7,675 bases of DNA from a virus (Duplodnaviria > Heunggongvirae > Uroviricota > Caudoviricetes), in IMG/VR virus record IMGVR_UViG_2547132269_000011, positions 1 through 7,675 of that record; one strand, 5' to 3'. The position numbers and the translations under genes are program-made. Each line of letters starts with the position of its first letter. The stretch's first letter is position 1. The notes under the pieces are model-generated. The model saw only the letters and a list, made by a program, of their open reading frames with translations. It did not search any database and had not been told where the DNA came from. Below are positions 1-7,675 of the stretch, piece after piece.

Positions 1-1212
1 GTGGCAAGAACGACACGCCCCCTGACCAACACAGAAGTTCTGCGCGCTAAAGCGTTAGAAAAGGATCTAACGTTACATGATGGCGATGGCCTTTTTCTGC
101 TCGTTAAAACGAACGGTAAGAAGTTGTGGCGTTTCCGTTATCAACGTCCAGCAACAAAACAGCGGACAATGATGGGGCTTGGTGCTTTCCCCGCCCTTTC
201 ACTTGCTGATGCTCGACGGTTAAGAGCGGATTACCTTGCTTTGTTGGCTAATGGTATAGACCCACAAGTTCAAGCTGAATTTATCGAAGAACAACAACAG
301 ATAGCTCTAGACAGTATTTTTTCGACTGTTGCGACCAACTGGTTCCAGATAAAAAGCAAAAGCGTTACCCCTGATTACGCTAAAGATATATGGCGCTCAC
401 TGGAAAAAGACGTATTCCCTGCCATCGGGGAGATTCCTGTCCAGCAAATAAAAGCCCGAACACTAGTTGAAGCCCTTGAGCCAATCAAAGCTCGTGGAGC
501 ACTCGAGACAGTGCGCCGACTTGTACAGCGCATTAACGAGATAATGATTTATGCCGTAAACACTGGTCTGATTGATGCCAATCCAGCATCAGGTGTTGGG
601 ATGGCCTTTGAAAAGCCCAGAAAACAAAACATGCCGACGCTGAGGCCAGAAGAATTACCAAAGCTGATGCGTTCTTTGTTCATGTCAAATCTGTCTGTTC
701 CGACTCGCTGTCTCATTGAATGGCAGCTTCTGACTCTAGTGCGTCCTGCTGAAGCTTCCGGTGCTCGATGGGCAGAGATCGATCTCGATGCAAAGCTCTG
801 GATGATTCCAGCCGAACGGATGAAGGCCAAACGAGAGCACATAGTTCCTTTATCCACGCAGGCATTAGAAATTCTAGAAGTGATGCAACCTATTAGCGCA
901 CATCGTGAGCATGTTTTCCCAAGCAGAAATGACCCTAAACAACCAATGAATAGCCAGACTGCGAATGCCGCGCTTAAGCGCATTGGTTATGGTGGGAAGC
1001 TTGTTGCTCATGGATTACGTTCTATAGCAAGTACAGCACTAAATGAAGCTGGTTTTAATCCGGACGTAATTGAAGCGGCACTTGCTCACAGTGATAAAAA
1101 TGAAGTTCGAAGAGCATACAATCGTTCAACTTACCTTGAACAACGTATAGACTTGATGAATTGGTGGGGTGAATTTGTGCACAACCGCCACCGCCTCATG
1201 CAAGCGATTTAA
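1..1212 (+). CDS. int: P4-family tyrosine integrase (site-specific recombinase); the 5' end may be clipped by the window edge
   Basis: 403-codon ORF from a GTG at position 1 to TAA at 1210-1212. N-terminal arm-binding-type region (LTNTEVLRAKALEKD...DGDGLFLLV...ANGIDP) and C-terminal catalytic motifs typical of tyrosine recombinases (AHGLRS H-x-x-R box; RAYNRSTY with the candidate catalytic Tyr). Sits at the element edge, as P4-like integrases do next to a tRNA attachment site. Confidence 0.9.
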   Translation: MARTTRPLTNTEVLRAKALEKDLTLHDGDGLFLLVKTNGKKLWRFRYQRPATKQRTMMGLGAFPALSLADARRLRADYLALLANGIDPQVQAEFIEEQQQIALDSIFSTVATNWFQIKSKSVTPDYAKDIWRSLEKDVFPAIGEIPVQQIKARTLVEALEPIKARGALETVRRLVQRINEIMIYAVNTGLIDANPASGVGMAFEKPRKQNMPTLRPEELPKLMRSLFMSNLSVPTRCLIEWQLLTLVRPAEASGARWAEIDLDAKLWMIPAERMKAKREHIVPLSTQALEILEVMQPISAHREHVFPSRNDPKQPMNSQTANAALKRIGYGGKLVAHGLRSIASTALNEAGFNPDVIEAALAHSDKNEVRRAYNRSTYLEQRIDLMNWWGEFVHNRHRLMQAI

Positions 1213-1239
1213 TAAGATTGCACAGCAAAGGAGTCTTAA

Positions 1240-2578
1240 ATGCCAAATAACTACCATCAATACATCGAAGACGTTAGTGATGATATAAAGACATGTCTTG
1301 AAGGAATGGGATGCCAACCCATACTTTTTGTTGGATCGGGATTAACCAAGAGATATCTTTCTGGCCCAAACTGGGAAGAACTTCTTCAGCAACTTGCTAA
1401 TGAATGTCCTAACATCGATAAAAGATTTGCCTATTATAAACAGAAATACCCCGAGTTGATTGATATCGGCAGTGTATTTTCTGATTCTTATAACGAGTGG
1501 GCATGGGGTGATGGAGAGAAAGAATTTCCAGCAGAGTTATTTGATGCAGGCAATGAGCCAAGTATTTATTTTAAATACAAAGCATCTAGTATTTTCAACT
1601 CATTGTTACAAGAAAAAGAAATCGTAAACAACGGTGAAATTGAACTTCTGAGAAAGATTCACCCTCATTCAATCATCACAACAAATTACGACAAATTACG
1701 ACAAATTACTTGAATCGATATATCCTGAGTTTACCCCCATTATAGGCCAAAAAATCCTTTACGCTAATCACGGTAGCATTGGTGAAATACTTAAAATACA
1801 TGGTTGCTGCTCCACTCCTGAAAGCATAATAATAAACCGCGATGACTACGATGACTTCATAAAGAAGAAGAAATATTTAAGCGCAAAACTGCTTACTTTC
1901 TTTGCTGAACACCCTCTTCTATTTATAGGTTACAGCGCAGAAGACTCGAACATAAAAAACATACTATCTGATATTGATGAACTACTTTCAGAAAATGGAG
2001 ATGTCATTCCAAATATATACATTTTAGAATGGACGAGCAAACAAAATGAAAGTGAATACCCACGCCGTGAACGGCTGATTCAAGTATCTGCAAATAAAAG
2101 CATTAGAATAAAAAGTATAGTAGCAAATGACTTCTCTTGGGTATTTTCAGCGTTTGGCGCGAACAGAGCACTTGATAACATAAATCCAAAATTATTGAGG
2201 GCACTTTTAGCTCGCACTTACGATCTCGTCAGAACTGATATACCTCGCAATCCTGTCCAAGTTGATTACCGAGTTTTATCAAGCATTAGCGAGTCAGAAG
2301 GTGAATTAGCGAAATTATATGGTATCGCCACATCGTCAGATGGTATGGCATTTAATGCCAGTTATCCTTTTACTTTAACCACGCTAGGGCAATCACTTGG
2401 TTTCAAAGGCTGGCATGATGCGAACAAACTATTAGAAGTAGTTAAAAACATCACGAACGTAGACATCAAGACATTCGATAACAAATACCACTATGCAATA
2501 ATGAACGGTGATGAGATTCAGTCCCATAGATATTCAAACTATCTTCGAGAACTCCTCGAAAAGGTTAGGGATGGATAG
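1240..2578 (+). pseudogene. SIR2-like (SIR2_2 / ThsA-DSR-type NAD+-dependent) candidate antiphage gene, interrupted by a +10 bp frameshift; repaired product about 442 aa
   Basis: ATG at 1240 with AAGGAG 6 nt upstream. Frame 1 gives 157 aa with a Gly-rich loop (PILFVGSGLTKRY) and ends ...IITTNYDKLRQIT* at 1711-1713. Frame 2 is open without stops from 1712 to 2578 and continues the domain (ESIYPEF...KIHGCC...LLFIGYSAEDSN...). Deleting one 10-bp unit joins them as ...ITTNYDKLLESIYPEF.... The Asn motif and the His motif fall on opposite sides of the shift. Visibly AT-richer than the flanking P4 core genes. Confidence 0.75.
1681..1710 (+). repeat. Three tandem copies of the 10-bp unit ACAAATTAC(G/T); two copies are coding-native, the third is the frameshifting insertion
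   Basis: Sequence acaaattacg acaaattacg acaaattact at 1681-1710. 10 is not a multiple of 3, so the extra unit shifts frame 1 into frame 2 and creates the TGA at 1711-1713. Confidence 0.9.
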
Positions 2579-2637
2579 GAGTTTGAGTTAGGAATAAAGG
2601 CTCCATAATTATTCATATAGCCTTACTACTTTTTATG

Positions 2638-2659
2638 GCCGCTTTAATAGCGGCTTTTT
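2638..2659 (+). terminator. Candidate intrinsic terminator downstream of the SIR2-like gene
   Basis: Stem GCCGCT (2638-2643) / AGCGGC (2649-2654), loop TTAAT, followed by TTTTT (2655-2659); 60 bp after the cargo stop codon. Confidence 0.5.
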
Positions 2660-2795
2660 CACAGCATTATTCATGCTTCTAGCACGATATGATGAACCGC
2701 AATAATCATAGCTAACAGGATTAATTTAAAGCATTACTCCTCGACTGAAGCGTGCTGTCATGCGAAAAAAATTTAAACTACCACGTTAGCGCGCA

Positions 2796-2814
2796 GTGCT
2801 TTCCCCGCCTCGCC
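2796..2814. other. cos: P2/P4-type cos cohesive-end sequence (reverse complement of GGCGAGGCGGGGAAAGCAC)
   Basis: The plus strand reads GTGCTTTCCCCGCCTCGCC at 2796-2814, an exact reverse complement of the 19-nt P2/P4 cohesive end as I recall it. Its position just beyond the 3' end of psu matches P4 organisation. Confidence 0.75.
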
Positions 2815-2860
2815 CGCACGCTTTGCGGGGCGGTTTTAATGCAGTTGCACTGACACGCTC

Positions 2861-2886
2861 AGACCGCGCCGGGAATGGCGCGGTCT
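2861..2886. repeat. Perfect 10-bp inverted repeat with a 6-nt loop near cos; possible packaging or protein-binding element
   Basis: AGACCGCGCC (2861-2870), loop GGGAAT, GGCGCGGTCT (2877-2886). No U-tract follows on either strand, so it is not a classical terminator. Confidence 0.4.
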
Positions 2887-2916
2887 GCAGAAAATGAGGC
2901 AGGGAAACGCATGCAA

Positions 2917-2948
2917 AGCCATGCACCTTATCGATGCATGGCTTTTTT
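2917..2948 (+). terminator. Candidate intrinsic terminator between the cargo/cos region and the convergent psu gene; may act in both directions
   Basis: Stem AGCCATGCA (2917-2925) / TGCATGGCT (2935-2943), 9-nt loop, then a T-run to 2948. On the minus strand it is preceded by an A-run and followed by a partly U-rich stretch, 30 bp past the psu stop. Confidence 0.45.
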
Positions 2949-2978
2949 CAGTAAAAACAGGCGGATTTTCGGGAAATT

Positions 2979-3551
2979 TTACACAGACTGACGTGATGCC
3001 AGTTGCGCACTTTTACGCGAAAAAATCATGTTCTGCGCAGGGGTGAATTTTTCACGGCTGTCGTCCACCGAAGCCGCGTCAGGCCTGAATCTGATGGTCG
3101 TTAAAATGTCGCTATCCTGTGCGGAATAATTAATTTTTTCACCCTTCGCAAGCCAGGACAGAAGGGCTTCACGCAGGGCATCTGTGGCACGCTGTATGGC
3201 ACAGTTTCGGGCAATGGCCGTCAGCTCACTGTAGCCCATCAGCTCCGGTGCCAGTGCCGCCGCCAGTGCTGTGCCGTGCTGCTGCATAAAATCATTCAGC
3301 CGGTCGCGGATGCTGATGTGCTGAACGGCTTCATGCGAACGAATATAACGACCGGCGGCCTGATTCACCTGCCATTTTCTGACTTCGATAATATTGCGTA
3401 ATTCGTCCAGGCGACTGACGTTTCTGCCTTCTCCTGACAGAAGCCGCAGATATTCCTGTTCGGCCGCAGCCAGCTCATTTTTGCGTTGCAGCCATGCTGC
3501 TTTGTTATTCTGACAGGTGTCAAAGGCCTGCTGTAAGGCTGTGCTTTCCAT
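2979..3551 (-). CDS. psu: Psu, polarity suppression protein (Rho antagonist / capsid decoration), 190 aa
   Basis: 190-aa ORF beginning MESTALQQAFDTCQNNKAAW..., which I recognise as near-identical to phage P4 Psu. Last gene of the sid-delta-psu block and ends next to cos. Confidence 0.92.
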   Translation of the reverse strand: MESTALQQAFDTCQNNKAAWLQRKNELAAAEQEYLRLLSGEGRNVSRLDELRNIIEVRKWQVNQAAGRYIRSHEAVQHISIRDRLNDFMQQHGTALAAALAPELMGYSELTAIARNCAIQRATDALREALLSWLAKGEKINYSAQDSDILTTIRFRPDAASVDDSREKFTPAQNMIFSRKSAQLASRQSV

Positions 3552-3624
3552 CGTTATCTCTTTCTCATCATGCTGAAGAATAAAAATACGGTGTGTGGCG
3601 ACGGCCGGTGTTAACCGGCAGCCC

Positions 3625-4125
3625 TCATTCCAGACGCAGCGAATATGATTGTGTTTTTAACCGTACTGGCGGCAGTTCCTGTTTTTCATGCAGGCGTTCT
3701 GCCAGTTCGTCCGGCGTGACCGGGCGGACAATGAAGCGGGTGATGGTCTGAAGCGTTTTAAACACCAGACCACAGCCCGGATCCGTGCACACATAAAAAC
3801 GCTCGGTGACTTCCTGAGACAGACGCCGCGATGTTCTTGACAGCGCAAGGCCTTTACATCTCCGACAACAATATCCGGTAACAAGCATTCTTTTCGGGCG
3901 CTTCATGCTGCCGGAGGCTGACGTCAGTGAATCGCGGTATCTCTGTTTGCCTGAAATGTATTCCATTCCTGAATCTTTACAGTCAGAGAAAAAGCTTTCA
4001 CTCGCTTCAAATGTCGCAGAGCAATAAATATTCCGGCACTGTGCAATCATTATCTTGGTGCCATCGTCCATGAAATGTGCGCGACGGGTGTGAGCAACAT
4101 GTCCACACGACGGGCAGTAAATCAT
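3625..4125 (-). CDS. delta: Delta, late-gene transcriptional activator with two Ogr-like zinc-finger domains, 166 aa
   Basis: The ORF track gives 185 aa from 4182, but the internal Met (MIYCPSCGHVAHTRRAHF...) gives 166 aa, the length I recall for P4 Delta, and its ATG (4125-4123) overlaps the sid stop (4124-4122) as ATGA. Two Cys-rich Ogr-type motifs (CPSCGH...C..C and CCRRCKG...CTDPGCG). Confidence 0.88.
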   Translation of the reverse strand: MIYCPSCGHVAHTRRAHFMDDGTKIMIAQCRNIYCSATFEASESFFSDCKDSGMEYISGKQRYRDSLTSASGSMKRPKRMLVTGYCCRRCKGLALSRTSRRLSQEVTERFYVCTDPGCGLVFKTLQTITRFIVRPVTPDELAERLHEKQELPPVRLKTQSYSLRLE

Positions 4126-4856
4126 GACAGCAGTCCTCTGGCCTTCAGCTCTGCTCCCTGCTGGTCTATTTTGTCCTGCCACACCTTGCGCTGTGCCGGT
4201 GTGCCTGCCACCTCATAATCCATGTGCGGGAGTGTTGCCGCTGACAGTCCGGTCAGCCGGAGAACCGGCTCGCCGGTGAGGCTGATTTGCATCTGTTTAA
4301 TTTTCTGTTCCAGCGATGATTTCACCTGCTGCATGACAGCCTTTTCCGGTGCGACGTAGCCCTGATGGCCGGTGGTGTTGGCGAGCGGATTTTCCTGTAC
4401 CAGAATGCTCAGATGCATTGCCCGGACAAGCGCCTCACAGGTTTCATTCAGGGCGTGTTCCAGCTCATGCTCTGCATACAGACTCAGAAGGTGATGATGT
4501 GCCTTCCGGTAGGCGGTGGCCGTGCTGTCACACGCCCCTTTCAGGCGTTCACGTTCGAAATTCAGCACCACGGCCAGATTGTCATATTCCTGTACCAGCT
4601 CCCGGCGTGCCACGCGCTCAATGTGGCGCTGTTTCAGCTCGTCGCTCAGGACACCACCGGCTGCACGAAAGGCCGTGCGCCAGTCGTCAGCGTCGTTTCC
4701 GTCGGCCTGCGTCAGCGCATTTTTTTCCTGCTCTGCCCGTTCAATGGCCGTGACGGTCTCATCCATCAGGCGGGCGTTCTCAAGATGAGCGGCTCTGGCC
4801 TTTTCCAGTTGTGCCAGTGCGGGTTGCAGATATTCAGGGATGGTGTTGTCAGACAT
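4122..4856 (-). CDS. sid: Sid, external scaffold / capsid size determination protein, 244 aa
   Basis: The track ORF is 266 aa from 4922. The internal start MSDNTIPEYLQPALAQLEKA... at 4856 gives 244 aa, the length I recall for P4 Sid, and has a GGAG Shine-Dalgarno (reverse complement of 4863-4866) upstream. Coupled to delta by the ATGA overlap. Confidence 0.9.
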   Translation of the reverse strand: MSDNTIPEYLQPALAQLEKARAAHLENARLMDETVTAIERAEQEKNALTQADGNDADDWRTAFRAAGGVLSDELKQRHIERVARRELVQEYDNLAVVLNFERERLKGACDSTATAYRKAHHHLLSLYAEHELEHALNETCEALVRAMHLSILVQENPLANTTGHQGYVAPEKAVMQQVKSSLEQKIKQMQISLTGEPVLRLTGLSAATLPHMDYEVAGTPAQRKVWQDKIDQQGAELKARGLLS

Positions 4857-4928
4857 TTTCCGGCTCCTCGTCACTTCAGGTTGAGAAAATTGTGACGTAC
4901 ACCGGACAGCAACACGACGCATTGCAGA

Positions 4929-4946
4929 TGTGCCAGCCCTGACACA
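4929..4946 (-). promoter_or_regulatory. Candidate Delta/Ogr-binding dyad (TGT-N12-ACA) for the sid late promoter
   Basis: TGT (4929-4931), 12 nt, ACA (4944-4946), centred about 81 bp upstream of the sid ATG. P2/P4 late promoters carry this dyad near -55. Pattern match only. Confidence 0.35.
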
Positions 4947-5025
4947 GGAGACTCATCCTCAGACCGGCAAGCCAGGAAAAGGTCGCAGGAAAAACCGGCT
5001 TACTGTTTGTTTTTTTATATTTTAC

Positions 5026-5129
5026 TGTTCACCTCTGTTCACCATAAGAAAAAAGATAAGTAATACAGTAAGTTAAAGGGTGAACAATCGCAGTGATGAC
5101 TGTTCACCGTCTGTTCACCACTGTTCACC
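5026..5129. repeat. crr: Cluster of six TGTTCACC octamer iterons (P4 crr/ori-type alpha-binding repeats)
   Basis: TGTTCACC at 5026-5033, 5036-5043, 5101-5108, 5112-5119 and 5122-5129 on the plus strand, and one inverted copy (GGTGAACA) at 5079-5086, mostly at about 10-bp spacing, flanked by AT-rich DNA. It lies between sid and the early operon, where P4 has its cis replication region. Confidence 0.7.
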
Positions 5130-5287
5130 CGTTGATGGGCTTTTTATGCTGTTTATTACTGTTTATTTTTATTAATTAACTGAAATAAATAAGAAAAAAC
5201 AATTTGCATTTCACTATAAAAAACTCCAGGTCCTTCAGAACCCTTTGAGACCCTTCCAGTCTGGATGGATAAAAAACACACAGCCAT

Positions 5288-5305
5288 TGTAAGGTTGCCG
5301 GAACA
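5288..5305 (+). promoter_or_regulatory. Candidate Delta/Ogr-binding dyad (TGT-N12-ACA) for a PLL-like late promoter upstream of vis
   Basis: TGT (5288-5290), 12 nt, ACA (5303-5305), about 110 bp upstream of the vis ATG. Pattern match only. Confidence 0.3.
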
Positions 5306-5407
5306 AATTCCCCCTGTTGCGTCTGCTGAAAATATTCACAAAATAAAGCGCTACCCGAAGCCGGACGGACTTATCCGGTGCTGTATGGACATTAACGAGG
5401 TAGCCCG

Positions 5408-5674
5408 ATGCAAGCTGTTTTTTCTTCCCCGTCTCCCGCCCCTGTTACGCCACTGATGCCGCTGCCGGACATCACGCAGGAGCGTTTTTTACGTCTGCCG
5501 GAAGTGATGCACCTGTGCGGCCTGTCACGCTCGACCATCTATGAACTCATCCGTAAGGGGGAATTTCCGCCGCAGGTGAGTCTTGGCGGTAAAAATGTGG
5601 CCTGGCTGCACTCTGAAGTCACCGCATGGATGGCCGGACGCATTGCCGGACGCAAACGGGGGTACGACGCATGA
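5408..5674 (+). CDS. vis: Vis / AlpA-family helix-turn-helix regulator, 88 aa
   Basis: 88-aa ORF with GAGG 7 nt upstream of the ATG. Contains the AlpA-type motif [48 protein letters not shown]. Length and position (between the late and early promoters) match P4 vis as I recall it. Confidence 0.75.
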
Positions 5675-5709
5675 TGATGCCCGCTCTGCAAAAAGTCCCT
5701 TTTTCTGGC

Positions 5710-5739
5710 TTGCCTTTTTCCGGCATTTGCGGATATAGT
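5710..5739 (+). promoter_or_regulatory. Candidate sigma70 promoter (PLE-like) driving the immunity/early operon
   Basis: TTGCCT (5710-5715), 18-nt spacer, TATAGT (5734-5739), just downstream of vis and about 30 nt upstream of seqA. A 5' stem-loop GCTGCCG/CGGCAGC follows at 5746-5765. Confidence 0.45.
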
Positions 5740-5769
5740 TTTTCCGCTGCCGCAAAATCGGCAGCCGGG

Positions 5770-5794
5770 CGTAGGAACCCGTGTAACTCGAAGG
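5770..5794 (+). promoter_or_regulatory. seqA-like target site for the immunity RNA
   Basis: CGTAGGAAC (5770-5778) and CTCGAAGG (5787-5794) recur in the same order at 6013-6021 and 6046-6053. Both blocks are complementary to blocks in 5967-5987. Confidence 0.55.
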
Positions 5795-5929
5795 CGACAT
5801 ATGACGCGCCATGCGTCTTTTTTTGTGTCGCAATCAACGCCACAGAGCGCCAGATTATGGTGTGGCGTGTGGTTTGCCGTGCAGGTATGATCCTGTTCGC
5901 AATCGCATGTTATGCCACTGAGTCAATGG

Positions 5930-6010
5930 TAGCTCAGGCGGGGCAGCCTCCGGGCTGGCCGGTATTCTTCGAGGCCGGTATTCCTACCCCCGTCTGGGCT
6001 ATCGCCATCG
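5930..6010 (+). ncRNA. cI: P4-type CI immunity RNA region containing seqB; exact ends not determinable from sequence
   Basis: CTTCGAG (5967-5973) and TTCCTAC (5981-5987) are antisense to the CTCGAAG and GTAGGAA blocks of seqA and seqC. Local hairpin CAGCC/GGCTG at 5944-5957. The position between the two target sites matches the P4 immunity architecture. Confidence 0.45.
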
Positions 6011-6012
6011 AG

Positions 6013-6055
6013 CGTAGGAACTCCGGCGATAGCAGTTATTTGCTACTCGAAGGAG
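6013..6055 (+). promoter_or_regulatory. seqC-like target site for the immunity RNA, overlapping the kil ribosome-binding site
   Basis: CGTAGGAAC (6013-6021) ... CTCGAAGGAG (6046-6055). The GAAGGAG Shine-Dalgarno for the ATG at 6064 lies inside the target, so RNA pairing would occlude translation initiation. Confidence 0.55.
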
Positions 6056-6063
6056 ACTGCCTT

Positions 6064-6261
6064 ATGGCTACAACCCTTACCCCTTCACACCCTGAATTTG
6101 TCTTTGTGTTTGCGGCTGTCCGTCGCGCAGACCGTCATCCCCGTATCTGCATGCTTCGCACCGTCGCCGGTGATGAACGCAGCGCCCGCCGTTCCCTTGT
6201 CCGTGACTATGTGCTCTCCCTTGCTGCCCGTCTGCCGGTGGTGGAGGTGTCCCGTGCGTAA
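6064..6261 (+). CDS. kil: Kil-like small protein, 65 aa, first translated gene of the early operon
   Basis: ATG at 6064 with GAAGGAG 8 nt upstream, 65 codons, stop at 6259-6261. Length and placement immediately after seqC match my recollection of P4 kil. The protein sequence itself was not recognised independently. Confidence 0.55.
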
Positions 6262-6541
6262 TAAAAAAGCCCCTCAGACCGTCTCAGCACGTCATGACGC
6301 CCGTGAACACCTCAGCATTGAGGCTTACCATAAGCTCAACCGCGCCAGCGCCGTATCCCAGTTTGTTGGGGGTGATTTGATTCACCGTGAACTCTCCGGC
6401 CTGCATCAGCTCTACATTCCGCATATTTTCAGCTACCTGAATGAAGATATTGATTTTGTGCTGAATGAGCTGAAAGCCAAAGGCCTGTGCCGCGATTTTC
6501 TCGCCCAGCAGAAAGACCGGGGAGACAAGACGCATGTTTGA
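6254..6541 (+). CDS. Hypothetical P4-like early protein, 95 aa, GTG start
   Basis: GTG at 6254 preceded by GGAGGTG. The track ORF 6098-6541 begins further upstream but that extension overlaps kil in another frame. Stop overlaps the start of the next ORF. Confidence 0.5.
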
Positions 6542-6914
6542 TTTTCCCCAGCCCGGTGAGATTTACCGTTCTGCCGGTTTTCCCGATGTGGCCGTGGTCG
6601 GCATTCTGGAAGACGATATTCCGTGGGAAATGCCGTACCGCTGCCCGGACATTGTCTGGAATCCGTACCGCCGTAAATTCAGTATCCTTGTGCGTATCCT
6701 CGCTGACGGGCGCACCACAGACATCCCGCTGGGGCGTTTTCTGCGGGAATTTACCTGTGACCGTCCTGACCTGTTCAAACGCAGCCCCGTAAACCGGCAT
6801 GCGGTACTGAAAGAAATGGCCGGAGACCCGGAATTACAGAAATGGCGGGAAATTCCCCGCACGGAGCCTGACCCGGAAACCACCCCGGATAACAGTTACC
6901 GCAATTATCTGTAA
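6534..6914 (+). CDS. Hypothetical P4-like early protein, 126 aa
   Basis: ATG at 6534 overlaps the upstream stop (ATGTTTGA), which suggests translational coupling. GGGGAGA lies about 10 nt upstream. No recognisable domain. Confidence 0.6.
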   Translation: MFDFPQPGEIYRSAGFPDVAVVGILEDDIPWEMPYRCPDIVWNPYRRKFSILVRILADGRTTDIPLGRFLREFTCDRPDLFKRSPVNRHAVLKEMAGDPELQKWREIPRTEPDPETTPDNSYRNYL

Positions 6915-6987
6915 TTAAAAAACGACACCCGAAAAATTAAATGTGCGTATTCGCGCAGGGATACGCACGTCTTCAGGAGACGCAGAT

Positions 6988-7053
6988 ATGCCTTATCAGT
7001 TAATGCAACCGGCACGGAATGCAGTCATCTGTCACAGGGAGGAAAGCAAATGA
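6988..7053 (+). CDS. Possible 21-codon leader ORF coupled to the next gene
   Basis: ATG at 6988 with AGGAGA 7 nt upstream; its TGA (7051-7053) overlaps the ATG at 7050 as ATGA. Preceded by a hairpin GTGCGTAT/ATACGCAC at 6943-6968. Too short to support on sequence alone. Confidence 0.2.
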
Positions 7054-7370
7054 AAACACCCTTACCGCCCGTCTTACGCGCAGCCCTTTACCGTCGCGCT
7101 GTCGCCTGTGCCTGGCTGACCGTGTGCGAACGTCAGCACCGCTACCCGCATCTCACCCTTGAATCACTGGAGGCGGCCATCGCCGCTGAGCTGGAGGGCT
7201 TTTATCTGCGCCAGCACGGTGAGGAAAAAGGGCGTCAGATAGCCTGTGCCCTGCTGGAAGATTTAATGGAATCCGGCCCCCTGAAGGCCGCGCCGTCGCT
7301 GTCCTTTCTCGGGCTGGTTGTGATGGATGAACTCTGTGCCCGTCACATAAAAGCGCCGGTACTGCACTGA
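7050..7370 (+). CDS. Hypothetical P4-like early protein, 106 aa, immediately upstream of alpha
   Basis: ATG at 7050 with GGGAGG 6 nt upstream. Same strand and tight spacing with the alpha start. Confidence 0.6.
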
Positions 7371-7384
7371 AGGAGAACAACACC

Positions 7385-7675
7385 ATGAAAATGAACGTAA
7401 CCGCCACCGTCAGCCATGCGCTCGGCCACTGGCCGCGTATTCTCCCGGCGCTGGGGATTCAGGTGCTGAAAAACCGTCATCAGCCCTGTCCGGTCTGTGG
7501 CGGGAGTGACCGCTTCCGTTTTGATGACAGGGAGGGGCGCGGCACCTGGTACTGCAATCAGTGTGGTGCCGGTGACGGCCTGAAACTGGTTGAAAAGGTG
7601 TTTGGTGTTTCCCCGTCCGACGCGGCCGCAAAGGTGGCTGCCGTGACCGGCAGCCTGCCACCGGCTGACCCGGCA
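7385..7675 (+). CDS. alpha: Alpha primase/helicase, N-terminal zinc-ribbon region; 3' end beyond the window
   Basis: ATG at 7385 with AAGGAGA upstream. Translation MKMNVTATVSHALGHW...CPVCGGSDRFRFDDREGRGTWYCNQCGAGDGLKL carries a CxxC...CxxC zinc ribbon typical of P4-type primases. Open to the last base of the window. Confidence 0.85.
   Translation, partial: MKMNVTATVSHALGHWPRILPALGIQVLKNRHQPCPVCGGSDRFRFDDREGRGTWYCNQCGAGDGLKLVEKVFGVSPSDAAAKVAAVTGSLPPADPA

Follow-up and report, generated by a model that had tools for sequence, protein, structure and literature searches.

A disrupted single-gene SIR2_2 candidate defence cassette in the cargo slot of a P4-like phage satellite

We analysed a 7,675-nucleotide stretch of viral DNA (henceforth the window), which covers a P4-like satellite from the first codon of its integrase gene into the alpha primase gene, and found that its variable slot carries a SIR2 gene disrupted by one extra copy of a 10-bp unit, ACAAATTACG. 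The extra unit causes a +10 frameshift within the codons of the TTNYD motif, ahead of the catalytic histidine, and removing it restores a protein of 442 amino acids (the repaired protein). Because the frameshift splits the catalytic Asn149 from His184, neither of the two resulting fragments can form an active enzyme; it is close to certain that the window copy is a pseudogene, i.e., a non-functional remnant, unless the duplication is an assembly error, and such a pseudogene could not itself provide defence. On balance, we read the region as a one-gene candidate defence cassette of the SIR2_2 (‘SIRim’) type that has become a pseudogene; its intact form would deplete NAD+ when triggered by a phage.

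The cargo slot of the satellite

The window (see Table 1 for its features) is 97% identical to phage P4 across positions 2815-7675, which include psu, delta, sid, the origin, the immunity region, orf106 and the start of alpha; this homology begins at the end of the linear P4 record. The integrase is not P4 int, and an identical gene adjoins ssrA (tmRNA) in loci of E. coli, E. kobei and E. albertii (L001, L006, L014 and L015). The cos region forms the right-hand boundary of the variable slot, and the SIR2 gene (positions 1240-2578) is the one gene-sized feature of the int-cos interval: in the list of open reading frames, nothing of 40 or more amino acids was found between the int stop codon (1212) and cos, except for frames that overlap the SIR2 gene. 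Its location between int and cos/psu of a P4-like element is that of the P4 psu-int hotspot defined by Rousset et al. 2022 (Cell Host Microbe, PMC9122126). These observations agree with the first-pass annotation of this DNA, which had described an AT-rich gene, not belonging to P4, as the sole cargo of the slot: the gene is foreign to the P4 reference, and its GC content is 0.372, whereas int has 0.468 and the P4 backbone 0.542.

Table 1. Coordinates of features in the window
Feature	Position	Strand	Evidence
Tyrosine integrase gene, 403 aa	1..1212	+	ORF; phrog_1 integrase, E=2.8e-71
Shine-Dalgarno-like AAAGGAG, 5 nt ahead of ATG 1240	1228..1234	+	Read from sequence
5' fragment of SIR2 gene, 157-aa ORF; Gly-rich loop and TTNYD, then out of frame to TGA	1240..1713	+	
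Perfect tandem repeat of the 10-bp unit	1681..1709	+	Tandem Repeats Finder: period 10, 2.9 copies, 100% match
Rest of SIR2 gene in +1 shifted frame; KIHG, GYSAED and family-specific C-terminal domain	1691..2578	+	
TAG where 452-aa alleles have GAG; last 10 residues lost	2576..2578	+	Alignments
Terminator-like hairpin GCCGCT-TTAAT-AGCGGC followed by TTTTT, downstream of SIR2 gene	2638..2659	+	Read from sequence
cos region, common to P2-like helper phages	2786..2861	.	89-94% matches to P2, 186-like and Yersinia P2-like phages
psu, 190 aa; first conserved P4 backbone gene past the slot	2979..3551	-	ORF; 97% identity to annotated P4
delta (3625-4125), sid (4122-4856), then ori, immunity region, orf106 and alpha start	after psu		97% identity to P4

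The ATG of the SIR2 gene lies 27 nt past the stop codon of int. A simple consensus scan of positions 1000-1240 detected no sigma70-like site on the + strand, and the gene may be transcribed together with int. The terminator-like hairpin that we read downstream of the gene was absent from the output of the consensus scanner.

We rejected decay of the satellite as a whole, given that psu, delta and sid have the same lengths as their P4 counterparts. Relative to a sister satellite (L001), the window carries, besides the 10-bp duplication, two in-frame deletions (of 9 bp and 75 bp) and two indels, +1 and -1, which compensate each other. The 75-bp deletion lies near position 6840 in the orf151 homologue (ORF 6534-6914) and shortens its product from 151 to 126 amino acids; P4 orf151 corresponds to the longer form. 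The int and SIR2 genes of the window are 99.7% identical to those of L001, while 48 of the 96 differences from this satellite fall within positions 5500-6500 (the cI/ash immunity region), where the substitution density is about 10 times higher. This disparity suggests different histories for the int-cargo module and for the immunity region. Short tandem repeats at 5025-5129 (CTGTTCACCT-type, period 10-11; Tandem Repeats Finder) coincide with the annotated P4 ‘ori type 1’ repeats.

Protein family, domain and fold

The repaired protein matched the Pfam SIR2_2 domain (PF13289) over residues 144-266 with 95.5 bits (E=4e-27; gathering cut-off of 24.5 bits), and the Pfam search returned no second domain. 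All four of the motifs on which the SIR2_2-type assignment had been based are present (FVGSG at residues 31-35, TTNYD at 147-151, KIHG at 182-185 and GYSAED at 227-232), and the assignment stands. Residues G32, G34, N149, H184 and D232 are invariant in 53 homologues, which span enterobacteria to Firmicutes and an archaeon and reach down to 51% identity. The best solved relatives by sequence were SeThsA (7uxt), DSR2 (8k98/8wkt), BcThsA (6lhx) and KomC (8zsf), with the TTNYD and (K/L)xHG motifs aligned; specifically, the catalytic residues of DSR2 and ThsA align with the Gly loop, Asn149 and His184 of the family. An AF2 model, built on a 96%-identical cluster representative with the 53-sequence alignment, had a mean pLDDT of 77 and was confident in the SIR2 part (residues 1-310). 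When this model was compared with the PDB using Foldseek, the top 50 matches were all ThsA, KomC or DSR2, with a probability of 1.0. The proposed likeness to the NAD+-depleting proteins ThsA and DSR is thus upheld by both the fold and the matching catalytic Asn and His, and it extends to KomC.

The best PADLOC match was the candidate system PDC-S25 (E=1.5e-83), with weaker matches to ThsA, LmuA, Dsr1 and Dsr2, and the best PHROG was phrog_2695 (E=1.7e-83). The PDC-S25 and phrog_2695 profiles comprise 517-531 positions, of which approximately 3-357 were matched (for PDC-S25, profile positions 10-357 of 517 aligned with protein residues 12-364). Their N-terminal ~350 residues (i.e., the SIR2 domain and flanking helices) resemble those of the family, whereas their C-terminal third differs. 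Since these ~520-530-position profiles align over the first ~350 positions only, the family is, as judged by profile comparison, a sister of PDC-S25 with a different C-terminus. Members of both PDC-S25 and phrog_2695 are single proteins on mobile elements, as is the case here; the homologues carried by temperate Bacillus, Mycobacterium, Streptococcus and Lactococcus phages share about 30% identity with the family, confined to the N-terminal two thirds. In the literature on PDC-S25 we found one incidental mention and no characterisation.

The C-terminal ~150 amino acids were found only in this ~450-aa family. A profile of the region retrieved 218 representatives among 1.84 billion proteins, with all full-length matches being ~440-600 aa long, and SIR2_2 was present in 10 out of 10 matching proteins that were checked. 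We considered whether the C-terminal domain might be a sensor shuffled onto other effectors, and rejected this as every such match was a SIR2_2 protein. The region is unusually conserved across phyla. Residues 318-365 are highly conserved, yet were modelled with pLDDT below 50, and residues ~365-442 bear a weak winged-helix (MerR/excisionase-like) resemblance; a Foldseek search with the C-terminal model returned nothing significant, and we do not assert a winged helix. Altogether, the search retrieved over 1,700 homologues of ~450 aa, from enterobacteria, Pseudomonas (73% identity), Xenorhabdus, Vibrio, Firmicutes and one Methanoperedens archaeon.

Genomic contexts of homologues

Homologues were found in P4-like satellites of E. 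coli, E. kobei and E. albertii, next to an integrase gene in Cohnella and alone in Vibrio. The 73%-identical homologue of P. aeruginosa (L003:8001-9353) lies at the accessory end of a Pf-like filamentous prophage (Zot, DUF2523, integrase), and a 256-aa protein with no Pfam domain is encoded 34 nt downstream of it. The hotspot of the E. kobei satellite contains a second gene between the SIR2 gene and psu (298 aa, L006:9457-10353, - strand), which is likewise devoid of Pfam domains and lies on the strand opposite to the SIR2 gene. A two-gene system with a missing partner was rejected, as the evidence that these two proteins are related is unconvincing (over 116 aa they share 24% identity, with E=3e-4 for a single comparison). 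No neighbouring gene was conserved across the Pseudomonas, Enterobacter, Vibrio and Cohnella contexts, and by this measure the family is best described as a single-gene unit. In E. coli E47 (L002, 1-19558) the SIR2 satellite adjoins the end of a P2-like prophage, a gene annotated as ‘anti-phage dCTP deaminase’ and a second integrase gene, so that a helper-like prophage, a satellite and defence cargo make up one compound island.

Comparison with known defence systems

Among characterised systems, the best structural and sequence neighbour is ThsA of Thoeris (8btp, 8bto, 7uxt, 6lhx), in which the TTNYD and HG motifs are aligned and the protein is of similar size (~450-480 aa). Unlike ThsA, the family has neither a SLOG/STALD nor a Macro domain and no ThsB/TIR gene nearby, and it shares ~17% identity with ThsA; accordingly, nothing points to activation by gcADPR. 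The PADLOC ThsA matches span the SIR2 part only (residues 117-251). With SIR2_2 as the sole Pfam domain and no TIR gene in the window, membership of ThsA was rejected.

DSR2 and DSR1 are, like the intact form considered here, single-protein SIR2 systems (in their case NADase defence), and His184 aligns with the catalytic H171 of DSR2. By contrast, DSR proteins are ~1,000-1,200 aa long and possess an alpha-solenoid sensor that binds the tail tube protein, whereas the present family is 452 aa long. The Dsr2 equivalog NF041819 was the only NCBIfam match and scored far below its threshold (14.7 bits against a cut-off of 1,400). Given this score, and 452 aa against the ~1,000-aa architecture with MID and CTD, we rejected membership of DSR2.

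The same SIR2_2-type effector fold occurs in KomC (Kongming), SIR2-HerA and the SIR2-type LmuA of Lamassu. These systems need partners (KomA/B, HerA and LmuB, respectively), none of which was present in the window or conserved beside the homologues. Membership of SIR2-HerA, Kongming or Lamassu was rejected because the SIR2 gene is the sole gene in the slot and the neighbours of its homologues differ everywhere we examined them. The ‘SIR2’ of the published clone pFR88 (WP_001133507.1), on the other hand, is the same gene in the same satellite slot, from which the window copy differs in being frameshifted and, almost certainly, non-functional.

Earlier records of the gene and a published phage assay

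Published work already covers the gene, where it lies in the P4 hotspot and its SIR2 nature, and the novelty implied by the first-pass annotation did not hold up. Specifically, WP_001133507 appears at least 21 times among the P4 hotspot loci in Table S1A (PMC9122126), the related profile PDC-S25 exists, and the Domainator paper (PMC11754643) describes a one-gene ‘Sir2-like (likely a NADase)’ cluster in the P4 hotspot, which (as cluster 12 / system 9) is probably the same gene as pFR88 ‘SIR2’. pFR88 is a clone of the intact gene from E. coli M605 (PMC9122126). The ~400 residues of its protein that are given in Table S2B agree with the intact allele, and its primers map to window positions 1119 and 3100, its insert corresponding to 1119-3100.

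pFR88 is found in Table S2B alone, under the ‘additional tested systems’, and is absent from the seven validated ones (PMC9122126). The assay used a low-copy plasmid and challenged the systems with eight coliphages in MG1655, and with P2 and four P2-like phages in E. coli C, where protection was conferred by the TIR-NLR system only (PMC9122126). Phage protection, on which the first-pass annotation had staked its proposal, has therefore in effect been assayed once on the intact allele, with a negative outcome that is subject to caveats of expression and of the phage panel. The pFR88 insert includes 121 bp 5' of the ATG, which lie inside int and, in a simple scan, contain no sigma70-like site. 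It thus probably lacks a native promoter, and the clone may be poorly expressed if the gene is co-transcribed with int. As the native promoter is probably missing, the negative pFR88 test is not proof that the gene has no function. A literature search for validated short single-gene SIR2 systems returned only DSR2, Avs5, SPARSA and similar systems, and for the ~450-aa family it found no demonstrated activity or NADase assay.

Function of the intact protein

If the intact gene is indeed a defence cassette, its protein would be held inactive until an infection cue is sensed by the C-terminal region. Given the weak MerR/excisionase-like winged-helix resemblance of this region, a nucleic acid may serve as the cue. 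NAD+ would then be hydrolysed by the SIR2 domain and the infection aborted, to the benefit of the satellite and the satellite's host. Against a role in defence stands the fact that, in the assay with eight coliphages in MG1655, the intact allele was missing from the protective systems (PMC9122126). In addition, the unusual conservation of the C-terminal region across phyla is atypical of sensors engaged in an arms race with phage proteins.

A more elaborate reading, which we put forward only tentatively, takes the intact ~450-aa family to be a still unvalidated single-protein NADase defence with a new, possibly nucleic-acid-binding, sensor domain. The published negative result would then stem from missing trigger phages or from missing expression, the latter because the gene appears to be co-transcribed with int, and the natural knock-outs (10-bp duplication, A-run frameshift and IS insertion) would stem from an autoimmunity cost.

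It is also conceivable, if unlikely, that the intact protein is not antiphage at all, and instead has another role for the mobile element or its host, such as that of a DNA-associated, NAD-dependent ADP-ribosyltransferase or deacylase, or of a regulator acting via a helix-turn-helix-like C-terminal domain. Such a role would accommodate both the negative pFR88 test and the very high cross-phylum conservation of the C-terminus. However, that test may have been carried out without a promoter, and SIR2_2, to which the domain belongs, is described in a published phylogeny (10.1101/2024.09.18.613514) as the immune clade, with all validated bacterial antiphage SIR2 proteins in it. All significant structural neighbours of the protein are, moreover, defence NADases, its gene occupies mobile-element cargo slots that are also used by validated defence systems, and sister families are found in temperate phages. 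We thus retain the candidate defence cassette as the preferred reading of the intact gene.

The lesion in the window copy

Read in frame 1 from the ATG at 1240, the gene encodes 157 amino acids ending in ...IITTNYDKLRQIT*, with the stop codon at 1711-1713. Alignments to L001 and L015 showed 1.9 copies of the 10-bp unit in intact alleles vs. 2.9 in the window, and one unit fewer together with an open frame was found in six complete E. coli genomes and one E. albertii contig. In the downstream frame, neither the frame translations nor the list of open reading frames contained a usable start codon before the TTG at 2195. As the intact E. coli sequence already holds the 9-mer ACAAATTAC twice, within the codons for TTNYDKLL, the 10-bp duplication is of the slippage type, at a direct repeat that was there natively. 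In the P. aeruginosa homologue, the TTNYDKLL peptide is spelled by different codons, and the repeat is absent.

It seems to us improbable that the duplication arose as an error of sequencing or assembly and that the source organism has an intact gene. The three-copy allele was absent from all 5,426 complete E. coli genomes and from the representative genomes searched, as one might expect of an artefact. On the other hand, exact 10-bp tandem duplications are atypical of short- and long-read errors, which mainly concern homopolymers, replication slippage classically acts on direct repeats such as the native 9-bp one at this site, and other natural alleles of the gene have been broken independently. 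We give hardly any credence to the idea that the repeat is a reversible on/off switch (contingency locus) which toggles a costly NADase by one 10-bp unit: although the lesion lies within the catalytic motif on a tandem repeat able to contract and so restore the frame, two or three copies are far below those of known phase-variable loci, the repeat is a by-product of E. coli-type codon choice that is missing from the P. aeruginosa homologue DNA, the lesions in other broken alleles are unrelated to it, and the three-copy allele was found in none of the other genomes searched.

Allelic variation and independent breakage

The window gene also ends earlier than its intact counterpart, which is 452 amino acids long in six complete E. 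coli genomes (WP_001133507.1). The roughly 440-aa format given in the first-pass annotation consequently holds for the repaired protein, but not for the intact E. coli allele, nor for the window gene as it stands, which is interrupted. Over 1,568 bp, the differences between the window and the intact allele are the 10-bp duplication, A115 in place of V115, the terminal TAG (created by a T at 2576) and two other substitutions. No match to the TAG allele was found in the representative genomes searched. The same TAG is carried by an E. albertii allele with an intact TTNYD (a 442-aa form), and the final 10-residue block has a pLDDT of 49 and a variable consensus. Since the tail is variable and poorly modelled, and the same TAG accompanies an intact TTNYD in E. 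albertii, we treated the 442-aa form as a natural variant; the TAG change is probably harmless. The E. albertii allele (GCA_027565795.1, L015:3001-4353) has a run of ~31 A where other alleles have CAAAAAA, which translates as a poly-Lys insertion within the SIR2 domain and is either an assembly artefact or a homopolymer expansion.

Several other alleles were found to be broken in different ways. These included an A5-to-A4 frameshift at codon 287 (P0083, a lineage with 42 member sequences), the insertion of ISKpn26 close to the 5' end, in an isolate from Swiss soil, and the variants P0016 and P0018, which are truncated or chimeric (i.e., with a replaced N-terminus or a shifted C-terminus). A fitness cost or relaxed selection would plausibly account for the breakage here and in these other lineages, with recurrent pseudogenes being equally compatible with neutral decay and with toxicity.

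Implications

Given that the gene has already been catalogued and that this copy is almost certainly dead, the discovery value of the window copy is small. The several independent inactivations nevertheless offer a small set of natural data on what it costs to carry SIR2 effectors. Finally, the family is widespread (over 1,700 close homologues; at 50% identity, 218 representatives) and is a fair target for biochemical work.
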